Assembly (NCBI GenBank): GCA_016432325.1
Contig: CP066684.1
Span: 800,001 to 864,000 of the forward strand
Reading direction: 5' to 3'
Length of the DNA: 64,000 nucleotides
Source: Candidatus Aenigmatarchaeota archaeon
GTDB taxonomy: Archaea; Aenigmatarchaeota; Aenigmatarchaeia; PWEA01; JACQIF01
The notes under the pieces were generated by a model. That model saw only the letters and a list, made by a program, of their open reading frames with translations, was not told the origin of the DNA and ran no database searches. Shown here piece after piece: positions 2,144 to 51,835 of the stretch. The stretch's first letter is position 1; every line of letters starts with the position of its first letter. Made by a program: the position numbers and the translations under genes.

Positions 2144-2379
2144 TGGCGCCCCCGGTGGGAATTGCGTTCGGCCTTTCGAAGAGTGGCCGGAGTGCAGACA
2201 CGGGTGTCTGCTTTCGAACCCACGACCCCAAGGTGTCTGCCTTTGCAGAAATCTGCAAAAACCGCAACCTTGTGCTCCATATGCTCAAGTCCGCAAAGGG
2301 ACTTTTCGTGAACGTTTTTGCGCGTTTAGCCTATGCGCATTGGCGCAAAAAGGTTCTTTCCAAGCTGAGCCACGGGGGC
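2144..2379 (-). tRNA. tRNA-Arg(GCG) with three introns: D-loop (~2278-2356, ~79 nt, junction uncertain), canonical 37/38 (2235-2261, 27 nt), T-loop 59/60 (2161-2212, 52 nt)
   Basis: Acceptor GCCCCCG/CGGGGGC, encoded CCA, anticodon stem CAAGG/CCTTG, T stem GTGGG/CCCAC. Canonical BHB helix TTGC/GCAG. Mature length ~78 nt. Confidence 0.9.
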
Positions 2380-2458
2380 TTTGTGCCGTTTAAATACCTT
2401 TCTCGGTCTACTAGACTTCCGCAACAACTATATAAAACGTCAAACGAAGTGGATCCGC

Positions 2459-2635
2459 ATGCAATCAACCGCGCAAGATACAATGTGCACAACCTGTGGC
2501 AAGAGCGTCTTCGGAGCGTCGCAGAGCGTCCGCTTCCTGTGCCCGCGCTGCGGAGCCGCAGAGATCGTGCGCTGCAAGGACTGCCGCGTGCTCAAGAACA
2601 AGTACGCGTGCGGTTGCGGATTCACAGGACCATGA
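2459..2635 (+). CDS. small zinc-ribbon protein (HVO_2753/DUF1610-like)
   Basis: CTTC...FLCPRCG...RCKDCR...YACGCGFTGP. Confidence 0.85.
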   Translation: MQSTAQDTMCTTCGKSVFGASQSVRFLCPRCGAAEIVRCKDCRVLKNKYACGCGFTGP

Positions 2636-2707
2636 GGGACCAGTAAATGCATGAAACTGCGGTTTCATATTTACTGCTCAGAAGCGTAAAGAGGGACAAG
2701 TAAATGC
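2634..2707 (+). repeat. hairpin element (ATGAAAC-TGCG-GTTTCAT core) between 17-bp direct repeats of the rps12 RBS/start
   Basis: GAGGGACCAGTAAATGC (2634) and GAGGGACAAGTAAATGC (2691); stem CAGTAAAT/ATTTACTG. Confidence 0.8.
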
Positions 2708-3129
2708 CGGGAATGTTCGCTGCAAGGAAGCTCAAGAATCGAAGGCAACACCTGAGATGGAAGGAGGTAAAGTACAGGACGCGCACCCTGAAACTCAAGG
2801 AGAAGAAAGACCCGTTGGAAGGCGCCCCTCAGGCCCGCGGAATCGTGCTGGAAAAGCGCACGATTGAACAGAAGCAACCTTCTTCAGGACTTGCGAAAGC
2901 CGTACGCATTCAGCTCATCAAGAACAACAAGCAGATAACCGCGTTCCTGCCGAGAGACGGCGCGGTGAAGCACGTGGACGAGCACGACATCGTTCACGTT
3001 CAGGGACTGCACGGCTCGCAGGGCGGCGCCAAAGGCTCCCTGTGGGGCGTGAAGTGGGCCGTCTTCAAGGTCAACGACATAGCGCTCGAACAACTCAGAA
3101 CCGGCAAGAAACAGAAGCCGAGCAGGTAG
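2704..3129 (+). CDS. rps12: 30S ribosomal protein uS12
   Basis: PLEGAPQARGIVLEK, KQPSS, QITAFLP. Confidence 0.97.
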   Translation: MPGMFAARKLKNRRQHLRWKEVKYRTRTLKLKEKKDPLEGAPQARGIVLEKRTIEQKQPSSGLAKAVRIQLIKNNKQITAFLPRDGAVKHVDEHDIVHVQGLHGSQGGAKGSLWGVKWAVFKVNDIALEQLRTGKKQKPSR

Positions 3130-3137
3130 GCGACACT

Positions 3138-3734
3138 ATGGACATGAAATTCTTCAACAAGTGGCCGGGAAACGTGGAAACGAAGGACCTCGGGCTCGCG
3201 ACATACATGAACACTAAGCCAACGCTCGTCCCGAGAAAATCCCACGGTCGCCATGCCCAGCACCAGTTCTACAAGAGCGACGTGTCGATAGTCGAACGCC
3301 TCATGAACCACATGTTCACTCCGGGCCACCGCGGCAAGCGCCACAAGTACACGTCGGGCCAGTGCTCGGGCAACTCTTTCACCAACTACGAGAACGTCAA
3401 GAGCGCCTTCGGGATCATAGAGCAGAAGACAGGAAAGAATCCCCTTGAGATTTTGGTGAAGGCGATAGAGAACGCCGCTCTCCGCGAGGAGGTCTCTTCT
3501 TATCAGATCGGCTCCATGATAGCGCGAAAAGCCGTCATCACGTCGCCTCAGAGGCGCATCGACCTTGCGATGAGATTCATGGCGCAGGGCGCGTACAGTC
3601 GCACGCACGGCTCCAAGAAGGCGATTGCGCAGACGCTCGCCGACGAGATAATAGCCGCGTCCAACAACTCGAAAGACTCGTACGCGATACAAGAGCGCGA
3701 CCGCCTCGAACGCGAAGCAGAAGGGGCGCGCTAA
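3138..3734 (+). CDS. rps7: 30S ribosomal protein uS7
   Basis: SIVERL, NPLEILVKAIEN, SPQRRIDLA, EREAEGAR; start set at ATG 3138. Confidence 0.95.
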   Translation: MDMKFFNKWPGNVETKDLGLATYMNTKPTLVPRKSHGRHAQHQFYKSDVSIVERLMNHMFTPGHRGKRHKYTSGQCSGNSFTNYENVKSAFGIIEQKTGKNPLEILVKAIENAALREEVSSYQIGSMIARKAVITSPQRRIDLAMRFMAQGAYSRTHGSKKAIAQTLADEIIAASNNSKDSYAIQERDRLEREAEGAR

Positions 3735-3770
3735 ACGCATTTTATAAGCCAGCCCGACGCAACCTTCCTC

Positions 3771-49714: not shown

Positions 49715-49756
49715 ACGTTCACTTCGTTCTTTGCTGAAGCTTTTTCACAAAAAGCT

Positions 49757-50317
49757 TCAAGGCGTTATGCGCGTCACGTGATAGTACGTCACGTCCCCTT
49801 CGTCGTCTACGACCGCCCAGAGCATCGTCGCGCGGATGTTGTGAGCGAGACGCACGGCGCGGCTGAGTTCTGCGTAAGAACACGTGAAACCCTCGGGAAC
49901 CGCGTGGACTATCCACTTGGTGTGCTCCTTCGCGGACTTGGGGCCCTTCTTGAGCTTCACTCCGCGATCATAGACGCGGAAATGGGTGCCGAACTTGAAG
50001 CCCGTACGAACGACAAAACCGCGCTCGCGCAGGTCTTTGAAGACCTTGTACTTCTGGGCGAACTCCTTGTCCAGTTCGCTGGCGCGGGCGTGGAACTCTT
50101 CCTTGTCGAGTTTCGTCTTGCCTTCGCGCACGAGCAAGCGCTTGCGTTCGACGAGATGCATGGCCTCGACAAGCGCAAGGGTGTTCTGGCCGCCCTCGGA
50201 CTTGCCGTAGCAGCCGATGTCGTATACTTCTTCCGCTTCGCGCTCGCCCCAGACTATTACGTCCGTTCCCTCGAGAACGCCTTCAAATTGCTTCACCGGC
50301 TGTTCCGTTTCTGCCAT
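49757..50317 (-). CDS. endA: tRNA-splicing endonuclease, single catalytic unit (alpha4-like size)
   Basis: L.LVEA.HL, VFKDLRERG, GFKFGTHFRVY, EH, VRLAH, VDDEGDVTYY. Confidence 0.93.
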   Translation of the reverse strand: MAETEQPVKQFEGVLEGTDVIVWGEREAEEVYDIGCYGKSEGGQNTLALVEAMHLVERKRLLVREGKTKLDKEEFHARASELDKEFAQKYKVFKDLRERGFVVRTGFKFGTHFRVYDRGVKLKKGPKSAKEHTKWIVHAVPEGFTCSYAELSRAVRLAHNIRATMLWAVVDDEGDVTYYHVTRITP

Positions 50318-50442
50318 AGTCTTACCTCGTGGACGTAACGGAGAAGGGTTTAAATAGCTCATGCCGCAGGGGCAGGAGCTTTAAACGGGCCGGCGCGCGA
50401 AGGGTTTAAATAACTGAGTTCCGAGTCTCTGTAGGGGATCGA

Positions 50443-50985
50443 GTGAGCAAGTTATCGGTCATAAGAACCGCGTTAGAGAAACGGAAGGGCAAAGACATCG
50501 TCGTCGACCCAGTCGCAATAGACGGAAGAAGGGGTTACGGAGGCGTCAACCTGAAACCAGTCAGCGTGCTCTACCGCATCGCGCCCCGAGAGGGCATATT
50601 CGATGTCCCGGGACTCAACGCTTTCATGCTCGGCATGGTGCCGGACATCAAACCCGACGTCGCCATACCATTCATTGCGGACAGGGACGGGGTGCTTAAT
50701 TTCGGTCATCTGCGTTACGACGAGGCAATCGGAGAGCAACAGGTTACGCATAGATACGTTCAGAAGATAACGGCCGACGACCTGCTGGCCGGGGACACTC
50801 TTCCGGGGTTTCGGGACGGCGTCAAGGTAATCGAAAAGCCAAAGGAGCCGGAGCCTTGGATGCGTATGATCAGCCTTAGATTCTATCCGCACGTCAAGCT
50901 GTTCCACAACGGTCCGAACCCGGAGTGGAGAACACAGATGCCTCTCAAGGAATTGCGTTACTATCAACCGCAGAAAGTAGCTTAG
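50443..50985 (+). CDS. hypothetical protein
   Basis: 180-aa ORF after a TTTAAATA box. Confidence 0.55.
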   Translation: MSKLSVIRTALEKRKGKDIVVDPVAIDGRRGYGGVNLKPVSVLYRIAPREGIFDVPGLNAFMLGMVPDIKPDVAIPFIADRDGVLNFGHLRYDEAIGEQQVTHRYVQKITADDLLAGDTLPGFRDGVKVIEKPKEPEPWMRMISLRFYPHVKLFHNGPNPEWRTQMPLKELRYYQPQKVA

Positions 50986-51012
50986 TCCGTTGCCGTTCGC
51001 TCTCGCTGACGC

Positions 51013-51534
51013 CTAGATTCTCGTTCCGTCAGAAGCCAGCATGACCTGGCACTGCTTGCAGAAGTCGAGTCCCTTCTCATCGACGTCGCTGAAGTGCTGG
51101 GCAACGGCCATCGCACACCTCTTGTCCTCGCAGTTCTTCAGGCCGAACATATGTCCTACCTCGTGCACGGATTCCTTGACCAGCCGCTCGGACGTGACGC
51201 CGAAGTTCATCTGGTTGCCGTAGAACGCGGGGTCCAGGCGGGCCGTAGAGACGATGCCGGGTCCCTTGCCGTTTGTCATTCCGAAAACGAAATTGAGATT
51301 TCCCGAGTAAAGGTCGGCGTTCGTGATGAGCAGGACCTTCGGGTCCCTGGCCAGTTTCAGGAGTGCTGCGGCGTCGTACTGTCCCCTGTACTTGTCGTAG
51401 GCGCTTTGCGGCAGGGGCACCTTCCTGTCAACGACAAACTTGTGGATGTAACCCCTTCTGTTCAATTCCTGAGTAAGAACGTCCATGTATTTCTTGGGGA
51501 CGTCTCCTATCTCTATCACGCGAATTACGGCCAT
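51013..51534 (-). CDS. archaemetzincin-family Zn protease homolog
   Basis: RGQY, NFVFG, HEVGHMFGLKNC...CAM...FCKQC. Confidence 0.85.
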   Translation of the reverse strand: MAVIRVIEIGDVPKKYMDVLTQELNRRGYIHKFVVDRKVPLPQSAYDKYRGQYDAAALLKLARDPKVLLITNADLYSGNLNFVFGMTNGKGPGIVSTARLDPAFYGNQMNFGVTSERLVKESVHEVGHMFGLKNCEDKRCAMAVAQHFSDVDEKGLDFCKQCQVMLASDGTRI

Positions 51535-51595
51535 TGTATCGCGTTCTGTACGCGGCGAAGGCTTATATACGTTTCATTGAAAACGAACTTGTCAC

Positions 51596-51835
51596 GCCGC
51601 GGTAGCTTAGCGGAAGAGCGCGTGAACCTTTGGCTTGCTAAAGGTCGCGAGGCTGTTAACCACGAGGTCGTCGGTTCAAAGCCTTTTGCGCCAATGCACG
51701 TAAGTAAACGCGCAAAAGCCTCTAGGGAAAGTCCGCCTGTGCACGGAAATGCCGGGCATTTCCGGCATGTCGGGAACGTAGTTCCCGTACACCGGCACGG
51801 AAGCGCGAACCTCGAGAATCCGACCCGCGGCGCCA
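51596..51835 (+). tRNA. tRNA-Asn(GTT) with introns at 30/31 (51625-51651, 27 nt) and 59/60 (51681-51818, 138 nt)
   Basis: GCCGCGG/CCGCGGC acceptor, G73, CCA; BHB helix CGCG/CGCG. Confidence 0.92.

Follow-up and report, generated by a model that had tools for sequence, protein, structure and literature searches.

Mosaic tRNA introns in an Aenigmatarchaeota archaeon share nested hairpin blocks with repeats dispersed outside tRNA genes

Introduction

The transfer RNA (tRNA) genes of a Candidatus Aenigmatarchaeota archaeon, a member of the DPANN archaea, carry introns that combine segments common to different tRNAs and to different positions within them. The stretch analysed here (the window) comprises 64,000 nucleotides (nt), positions 800,001 to 864,000 of contig CP066684.1, and belongs to a genome consisting of a single contig of 874,869 bp, with 56% GC and 90% completeness as judged by markers. 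An earlier inspection of the letters of the window (the sequence-only reading) had proposed that these introns are mosaics of shared hairpin modules which transpose and nest inside existing introns. The mosaic organisation was recovered in a genome-wide analysis, for instance in the 138-nt T-loop intron of tRNA-Asn and the 100-nt D-loop intron of tRNA-Met. With regard to the modules themselves, their nesting is supported by blocks found within otherwise identical introns, while their transposition is a matter of interpretation, no reverse transcriptase or transposase having been found.

The tRNA genes of the window and their introns

The tRNA genes were located with a custom scan for three combined features, which returned 38 genes genome-wide: a candidate had to have a T-stem with TTCRA after it, to show perfect pairing over a 7-bp acceptor stem and to encode its CCA. 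A solver combining the cloverleaf with the splice motif, which allows at most two introns 5' of the T-arm plus one in the T-loop, resolved 33 of the 38 genes; in these, the cloverleaf returns once the predicted introns are removed. Almost every tRNA gene of the genome is thus interrupted, by one to three introns. The resolved genes contain 2.18 introns per gene, with three introns in 14 genes, whereas the genes with solver indices 3, 13, 18, 21 and 28 were left without a solution. Gene 2 (genome 29821-30081), called His by the solver, is probably a tRNA-Leu. Introns occupy the D-loop, the anticodon loop and the T-loop at 59/60, with relaxed bulge-helix-bulge (BHB) borders in which the central 4-bp helix is paired at three or four of its four positions in most cases, G-U pairs being allowed. 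In the following, introns are named by the loop in which they lie (D, A or T for D-loop, anticodon loop or T-loop) and by their length in nt. Once their introns are removed, the eight genes of the window yield clean mature tRNAs, 72-75 nt long, in which the stems are correct and the conserved bases present. These genes and their introns are as follows, M1, M2 and M3 being recurring blocks and F1 and F2 intron families.

2144-2379, minus strand: tRNA-Arg(GCG) with encoded CCA and three introns; intron removal gives a clean 75-nt tRNA
2281-2359, minus strand: Arg(GCG) D-loop intron, 79 nt; central helix 4/4, outer 3, inner 3
2235-2261, minus strand: Arg(GCG) anticodon-loop intron (37/38), 27 nt; motif 4/4, outer 4, inner 6
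2161-2212, minus strand: Arg(GCG) T-loop intron (59/60), 52 nt; motif 3/4, the T-stem (4 bp) being the outer helix
23982-24087, minus strand: initiator-type tRNA-Met(CAT) with one 28-nt intron (24029-24056)
29428-29613, minus strand: tRNA-Pro(GGG) with an anticodon intron (29529-29573, 45 nt) and a T-loop intron (29445-29507, 63 nt)
29729-29920, plus strand: tRNA-Ala(CGC) with a D-loop intron (29745-29795, 51 nt) and a T-loop intron (29840-29903, 64 nt, family F1)
29953-30062, plus strand: tRNA-Ile(GAT) with a canonical 33-nt intron (29991-30023)
30562-30787, plus strand: elongator tRNA-Met(CAT) with a D-loop intron (30581-30680, 100 nt) and a T-loop intron (about 30720-30770, 51 nt, border ambiguous by a few nt)
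51596-51835, plus strand: tRNA-Asn(GTT) with a 27-nt intron in the 5' anticodon stem (51625-51651) and a 138-nt T-loop intron
51681-51818, plus strand: Asn T-loop intron, 138 nt; M1 hairpin and linker (about 51681-51738), M2 (51739-51792) and a 3' tail
51841-52051, plus strand: tRNA-Phe(GAA) with three introns, in the D-loop (51864-51911), the anticodon loop (51927-51968) and the T-loop (51991-52034, family F2)

Standard tRNA finders catch only about a quarter of the tRNA genes in this genome. ARAGORN reports no tRNA in the window and 12 genome-wide, several of them spurious with absurd introns, and Rfam finds two in the window and eight above threshold genome-wide. As both programs miss most of the genes, tRNA counts for such genomes are badly underestimated.

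Segments shared between introns

The set used for comparisons comprises 76 introns with a total of 4,333 nt, or 0.25% of the two strands of the genome. In a same-strand all-versus-all alignment of this set, 62 pairs reach a score of at least 18 and 22 pairs a score of at least 30, the best pair scoring 69. Dinucleotide shuffles of the 76 introns (n = 20) have maximum scores of 11-16, and shuffles that preserve structure (n = 30), in which base pairs and loop bases are permuted within each predicted structure, have maxima of 10-16. Random hairpins of the same composition, the comparison by which the sequence-only reading had asked to be judged, thus peak at 16 and do not reach the observed scores; since real intron pairs score above all shuffles, such hairpins do not explain the matches. 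A chance likeness of GC-rich hairpins with similar composition, in favour of which the only point is the weakness of one of the earlier matches taken as a single pair, is already refuted by this comparison, and its probability is close to nil.

All of the segments quoted in the sequence-only reading were found where it had placed them, within independently annotated introns of the Arg, Met, Asn, Pro and Ala genes, and the length of the Asn T-loop intron is exactly 138 nt. The proposed match between the Arg D-loop intron and the Asn T-loop intron holds at 31 of 35 positions, with a score of 26 against a maximum of 14 over 2,000 shuffles. The Pro and Asn T-loop introns share 26 nt at 92% identity (blast score 20), and the segment common to the Met D-loop and Asn T-loop introns has a gapped score of 19.25, which none of 2,000 shuffles reaches (maximum 15.5). 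The 10-mer noted in the Pro and Ala T-loop introns is weak as a single pair (score 12); it gains weight from its distribution, five of its nine genome copies lying in sense in tRNA T-loop insertions, four of these five within the 76 annotated introns.

Similarity frequently extends over whole introns, many pairs from different isoacceptor tRNAs being 89-100% identical. Arg(TCG) D110 and Gly(TCC) A108, a D-loop and an anticodon-loop intron, are 91% identical over 93 nt, and Ser(GCT) T48 and Val(CAC) D60, from a T-loop and a D-loop, are 100% identical over 36 nt. Family F1 is common to the Glu, Trp, Ala(CGC), Pro(TGG), Val(TAC) and other T-loop introns, and family F2 to six genes. Both families are confined to T-loops, where the exon flanks are most conserved among tRNAs, which would fit recombination through exon homology. 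In F1 (for example 29840-29903), the purine tract that follows hairpin 1 (AAAGAAAC, AAAAGAAAC or AAAAAAC) varies together with the purine or 3' arm of the hairpin. A core designated M1b is found in seven D-loop introns, two T-loop introns and one anticodon-loop intron, with copies up to 100% identical. It is missing from the annotated introns of a same-genus genome (the congener) and looks like a recent burst.

Other introns are composites of segments with different relatives. The first 33 nt of Met D100 are 100% identical to Ser(GCT) T48 and Val(CAC) D60, and the next 70 nt are 96% identical to Arg(TCG) D110. The intron consists of the M1b core and a nested M2; the T-loop intron of the same gene, Met T51, ends in M3. 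In Asn T138, hairpin 1 resembles Arg(GCG) D79 and Leu T133, the linker resembles Pro T63 and Val(CAC) T92, and linker, M2 and tail together are 90% identical to Arg(TCT) T143 over 89 nt. The M2 part of this intron matches the M2 profile with E = 3.3e-13, and the intron has a fold z-score of -3.0. Arg(GCG) D79 is laid out as a hairpin with a T-run (M1), a linker CGTTCACGAAAAGTCC and a second hairpin, and includes the segment 2315-2353; it is 92% identical to Leu T133 over 38 nt and 89% identical to Asn T138 over 35 nt, and also matches a non-tRNA locus at 689.0k (positions in k refer to the genome). Pro(GGG) T63 consists of M1 followed by a GCCTTCCGGC mini-hairpin.

Blocks nested within introns

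Global alignments of all intron pairs of this genome and the congener were searched for pairs that differ by an inserted block between matching flanks, defined as ten bases on each side with at least nine of ten identical. This search returned 17 filled and empty pairs, corresponding to about 11 distinct events, with inserts of 20-53 nt that are frequently placed in hairpin loops of the host introns. In Ser(GCT) D107, a 43-nt double hairpin lies in the loop of hairpin 1 as compared with Val(GAC) D62, and Arg(TCG) D110 and Gly A108 carry a 47-nt two-hairpin M2 block that is absent from Ala(TGC) D50. By eye, the M2 block of Met D100 sits at the equivalent place. Similarly, hairpin 1 of Val(GAC) T105 contains an insert of about 50 nt relative to Phe T44, Gly T56 and Ser T51. 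The hairpin M3 is terminal in some introns and nested in hairpin 1 of others, and it is also found in tRNA trailers.

Copies of the blocks outside tRNA introns

When tRNA genes are masked, the introns match about ten non-tRNA loci. M1, a hairpin of a T-run and an A-run with a CNTTYATGAAAAGTCCG linker, occurs directly after stop codons at 301.5k, 689.0k and 872.6k; its copies carry ATGAAAA, and in two cases this shares the frame of the following gene. M2 is a unit of about 50 nt with two covarying hairpins, and a profile search locates it at no fewer than 20 loci in this 875-kb genome, mostly outside tRNAs, and at seven loci in the congener. The covariation analysis suggested by the sequence-only reading showed that the M2 hairpins are held by double-sided changes: in an alignment of 22 copies, one pair is C-G in 11 and U-A in 11, and G-C, A-U and C-G are mixed at three others. 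The better-scoring strand of M2 is the sense strand in the tRNA genes with a profile match (with one tie) and at most of the other loci inspected. One M2 subtype has the ends GTGTAC...GTACAC. At genome 127200-127340, the two hairpins of an M2 copy are split by four further hairpins, a case of nesting within the module outside tRNA genes. Elements outside introns that lie in the window are the following.

23261-23325, minus strand: M2 copy outside any tRNA gene; best M2 profile match, E = 1.8e-14
29672-29728, plus strand: leader element 5' of tRNA-Ala, beginning with a repeat of the 5' acceptor 7-mer GGGCAGG
30063-30157, plus strand: 3' trailer element of tRNA-Ile(GAT), ending with hairpin M3 (GAAACGCGAAGCGTTTC) and a repeat of the tRNA's 3' end, GGTCCACCA
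62555-62607, plus strand: M2 copy with a TTTATAAA box on one side and a minus-strand gene's start on the other; E = 6e-9

The trailer layout of Ile(GAT) recurs after Val(CAC) at 700.8k (genome 700796-700850) and after a probable tRNA-Ile(TAT), identified by eye, at 698.5k (genome about 698450-698545). In all three trailers, a hairpin element is followed by an exact repeat of the final 9 nt of the tRNA, CCA included (GGTCCACCA or GGCCCACCA). The leader element of tRNA-Ala has a weak match to an intron of Ser(GGA). An arrangement of this kind, in which the gene's own 5' acceptor 7-mer is repeated 45-59 nt upstream with a hairpin element between the copies, was observed for five tRNA genes (window 29672-29728; genome 753597, 629801, 758126 and 25082). 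The M2-containing elements at genome 158640-158860 and 749900-750170 lie between duplicated gene starts (ATGGGAAC, or a ribosome-binding site with ATG). At both loci, a short reading frame opens at the first copy of the start and passes through the element to a stop that overlaps, or lies just before, the real start.

Comparison with the congener and other relatives

The congener also has multi-intron tRNAs, with different intron contents. Its tRNA-Asn is devoid of a T-loop intron, and its Ile(GAT) is interrupted in the D-loop and the T-loop by introns that are missing here. The T-loop introns of its Gly(TCC) and Phe genes belong to other families and carry M2, that of Phe being 115 nt long and unrelated to the Phe intron of the window. 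Its Pro(GGG) ortholog has introns at both sites, with hairpin 1 altered on both arms. The M2-bearing tRNA introns are Asn T, Arg(TCT) T, Met D, Arg(TCG) D and Gly(TCC) A in this genome, and Trp T, Gly(TCC) T, Phe T and Thr T in the congener; no M2-bearing tRNA site is common to both, and block occupancy differs completely. Across seven related genomes, the T-loop intron of tRNA-Asn measures 138, 0, 32, 46, 100, 0 and 0 nt, and the sequences are unrelated. The intron population is young, with copies up to 100% identical and an occupancy that differs between two species of one genus.

Outside tRNA genes, four clear empty orthologous sites were found in the congener, in the RNase P RNA gene and at 158.7k, 420.4k and 652.7k. 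The RNase P RNA gene is identified by Rfam as archaeal RNase P RNA, with 56 bits against a gathering threshold of 84 bits, a low score presumably due to insertions. It contains a precise 50-nt M2 insertion (genome 649170-649222) in a nearly invariant stretch that is uninterrupted in the congener. A check by hand detected no splice motif at the borders of this insertion under any allowed shift, and M2 may be kept there as a ribozyme expansion. These differences in presence and absence, like the sharing of segments, the nested layout and the non-tRNA copies, are direct observations.

Splice borders and splicing enzymes

With regard to splicing, an insertion of 44-143 nt is present in the T-loop of 31 of the 38 tRNA genes, and for 26 of these 31 the best splice border is 59/60, the outer helix being the 4-bp T-stem. 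At 59/60, T54-R57 pairs with a YGAR tetramer located 2 nt 5' of the 3' splice site, and three or four of the four pairs of the central helix are formed at all but two borders. The BHB geometry was verified on the canonical Ile(GAT) intron. The scoring permits G-U pairs and one mismatch, as the strict Watson-Crick form seemed to fail by hand. When applied to the non-tRNA elements, the motif scan was uninformative, with random windows scoring equally, and those copies are not claimed as introns.

49757-50362, minus strand: EndA tRNA-splicing endonuclease, 201 aa (PF02778 and PF01974), the sole copy in the genome
genome 406386-407777, minus strand: RtcB, RNA ligase, outside the window

EndA would presumably excise the introns and RtcB rejoin the exons. 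The closest solved relative of this EndA is the homotetrameric enzyme of M. jannaschii (1a79), to which it aligns end to end except for a 6-aa insertion, KKGPKS, that aligns without gaps to the alpha subunit of N. equitans; its relatives are almost all from metagenome-assembled genomes of Aenigmatarchaeota, the nearest at 85% identity. Homotetramer-type EndA enzymes of DPANN archaea with a C-terminal 'L3' loop have a broad substrate range and have been linked to disrupted tRNA genes (Kaneta et al. 2018, PMC5829648). The enzyme of the window resembles them as a single alpha-type protein whose lysine-rich insertion lies where the N. equitans alpha subunit has its own, in a genome with many disrupted tRNA genes, and its KKGPKS insertion fits the L3 loop described there. 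Unlike the cases of that study, Aenigmatarchaeota were outside its set of tRNA-gene predictions, and the activity considered here is a predicted one. The reading frame of RtcB has 608 aa against a family model of 426 positions, so that an insertion or intein may be present.

Origin of the mosaic

Taken together, the mosaic appears on balance to be the product of three processes, the copying of whole introns, the copying of dispersed hairpin repeats into intron interiors, and recombination between related introns; the first and the last of these do account for part of it. Under this scheme, whole introns would be copied into other tRNA genes, to the corresponding loop and at times to a different one, while self-folding hairpin blocks of 20-55 nt, members of repeat families dispersed throughout the genome, would be copied into introns, often into their hairpin loops. 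Recombination between introns with conserved cores would then shuffle the blocks further, splicing by EndA and RtcB would render the insertions harmless, and the intron population would turn over quickly. Intron interiors would be safe ground because whatever lies inside is discarded. We infer that the blocks were inserted rather than deleted, and likewise the mechanism of copying or transposition.

Several points weigh against this scheme. Searches of the 875-kb contig covered three families only, reverse transcriptase, Y1 transposase and TnpB-type domains, and found none of them. Target duplications are inconsistent, with 8 nt (ATGGGAAC) at 158.7k and no evident duplication either at the RNase P site or within introns; duplications of 9 nt (GGTCCACCA and GGCCCACCA) follow three tRNA genes and duplicated 5' acceptor 7-mers precede five genes. 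The breakpoint of Met D100 lies within a shared AAAAACCCGCGGGAA core, as expected from plain gene conversion. Insertion can be told from deletion only at sites with a counterpart in the congener or an outgroup, and the congener assembly, of 540 kb, is 73% complete. The annotation relies on a heuristic of our own that left five of the 38 genes without a solution and missed about 8-10 expected tRNAs. The splice-motif score is permissive, random 200-nt windows often scoring alike, and it is from the motif and the recovered cloverleaves that these segments are inferred to be protein-spliced archaeal tRNA introns.

Some of these points would also suit an alternative, which we regard as unlikely, in which only whole introns move and the remainder reflects divergence, hairpin-loop indels and gene conversion, with no independent sub-intron unit. 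Whole-intron copies clearly exist, the mosaic breakpoints fall within shared cores and no transposase or reverse transcriptase was found. In addition, neither F1 nor F2 leaves the T-loop, and F1 is old, being recognisable in another genus. Such a model does not readily accommodate the presence of M2 and M1 at many non-tRNA loci (RNase P RNA, a 5' leader and gene junctions), with orthologous sites empty in the congener, nor the occurrence of M2 in at least five unrelated flanking contexts with no single fixed order, nor the variable position of M3 at intron ends, inside hairpin 1 and in tRNA trailers. In another alternative, the blocks are functional RNA motifs (for example protein-binding, processing or stabilising) kept by selection for a shared function rather than by selfish copying. 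The compensatory changes that maintain both M2 hairpins across the 22 copies, the preference of M2 for the sense strand and the location of M1 directly after stop codons, with its in-frame ATGAAAA, would agree with a function. We nevertheless find this improbable: covariation may also come from the generation or repair of palindromes, the intron copies are discarded with the intron, block occupancy is not conserved between the congeners, no Rfam family matches the blocks in the window, and the M2 copy at 62555-62607 appears antisense to the nearby gene.

A further alternative takes each block as a small intron with its own splice motif, excised in a separate step from the host intron, and it is for such internal BHB sites and nested splicing that the sequence-only reading had recommended a search. 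A fully paired central helix (4/4) is seen at the border of Ser(GCT) D107 and also, by eye, for M2 in the Met, Arg(TCG) and Gly introns, provided that the cut falls at CGGGAA|T ... CCCGAA|T. Across about 11 independently defined module borders, however, the pairing varies from 0 to 4 of 4, mostly 2-3, with no clear excess over a chance expectation of about 1.5-2 of 4, and the outer and inner helices are missing at the two borders examined by eye. As the module borders do not bear their own splice motif, there is no support for nested splicing; moreover, such a motif is missing from the M2 insert in RNase P RNA, and splicing a block within an intron would bring no benefit. This alternative seems very improbable.

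The combined scheme of intron copying, block insertion and recombination can be taken one step further, on more doubtful ground. M2-like blocks might be undescribed, enzyme-less tiny mobile elements of DPANN archaea, inserting into transcribed structured RNA genes and gene junctions and founding or enlarging spliceable introns where the BHB fold allows. If so, enzyme-less hairpin elements would constitute a direct, observable route of archaeal tRNA intron gain. M2 resembles miniature inverted-repeat transposable elements (MITEs) and repetitive extragenic palindromic (REP) sequences in its many dispersed copies and its presence or absence at orthologous sites, and differs from them in that no cognate transposase was found (Y1, TnpB and reverse transcriptase were searched).

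Relation to known systems

The sharing of introns across tRNAs and positions is known already from Thermoproteales. Near-identical introns across isoacceptors, in canonical as well as non-canonical locations, and many genes with two or three introns are reported there (Fujishima et al. 2010, Mol Biol Evol 27:2233, as presented in PMC4090602 and 10.64898/2026.10.13.758758), and intron transposition is thought to act on DNA (PMC4090602; 10.64898/2026.10.13.758758). The introns described here resemble this system, as far as those two accounts portray it, in having copies at 89-100% identity, above a threshold of about 80%, in different isoacceptors, and copies at different tRNA positions. They differ from it, with the same proviso, in that the host is a DPANN archaeon of the Aenigmatarchaeota with an almost universal T-loop 59/60 intron, in that sharing extends below the intron level to nested hairpin blocks of 20-55 nt, and in that these blocks belong to repeat families also found in RNase P RNA, mRNA leaders and gene junctions.

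Some Asgard lineages have about 2.2 intervening sequences per tRNA gene, many of them missed by standard finders, with repeated gains at the same positions (10.64898/2026.10.13.758758). The number of introns per gene and the failure of standard finders are similar here; unlike this genome, those lineages are without shared intron families, and the words nested, mosaic, modul- and hairpin do not occur in that preprint. In the literature examined, no description was found of sub-intron modules, of nesting or of a link between tRNA introns and dispersed repeats, which constitute the new elements of this work, and no paper listed by a literature search on the topic joins miniature inverted-repeat elements with archaeal tRNA introns.

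REP sequences and bacterial interspersed mosaic elements (BIMEs) are short, dispersed palindromic units that combine in mosaics and lie mostly at gene boundaries. The units described here are likewise short, dispersed and palindromic, occur in mosaic combinations and sit for the most part at gene boundaries. Unlike REP and BIME, they were not accompanied by a RAYT/Y1 transposase in our searches, and they are also located inside spliced introns and a ribozyme gene; additionally, M2 forms a junction of two hairpins, not a single stem-loop.

This genome gives a concrete lead on the origin and growth of archaeal tRNA introns. It is a small, complete system in which the moving units are delimited to 20-55 nt and can be traced outside introns, even in RNase P RNA, and in which intron gain, growth and replacement become testable in Aenigmatarchaeota.

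Additional observations

A run of five T present in many introns (30590-30594, 2343-2347 and about ten others) resembles the archaeal termination signal, and these runs sit within essential single-copy tRNA genes. Finally, positions 31659-31734 hold an intron-less 76-nt tRNA with the anticodon TGT (Rfam 56 bits), whose T-loop reads GGCAGAG in place of the usual TTCRAAT.

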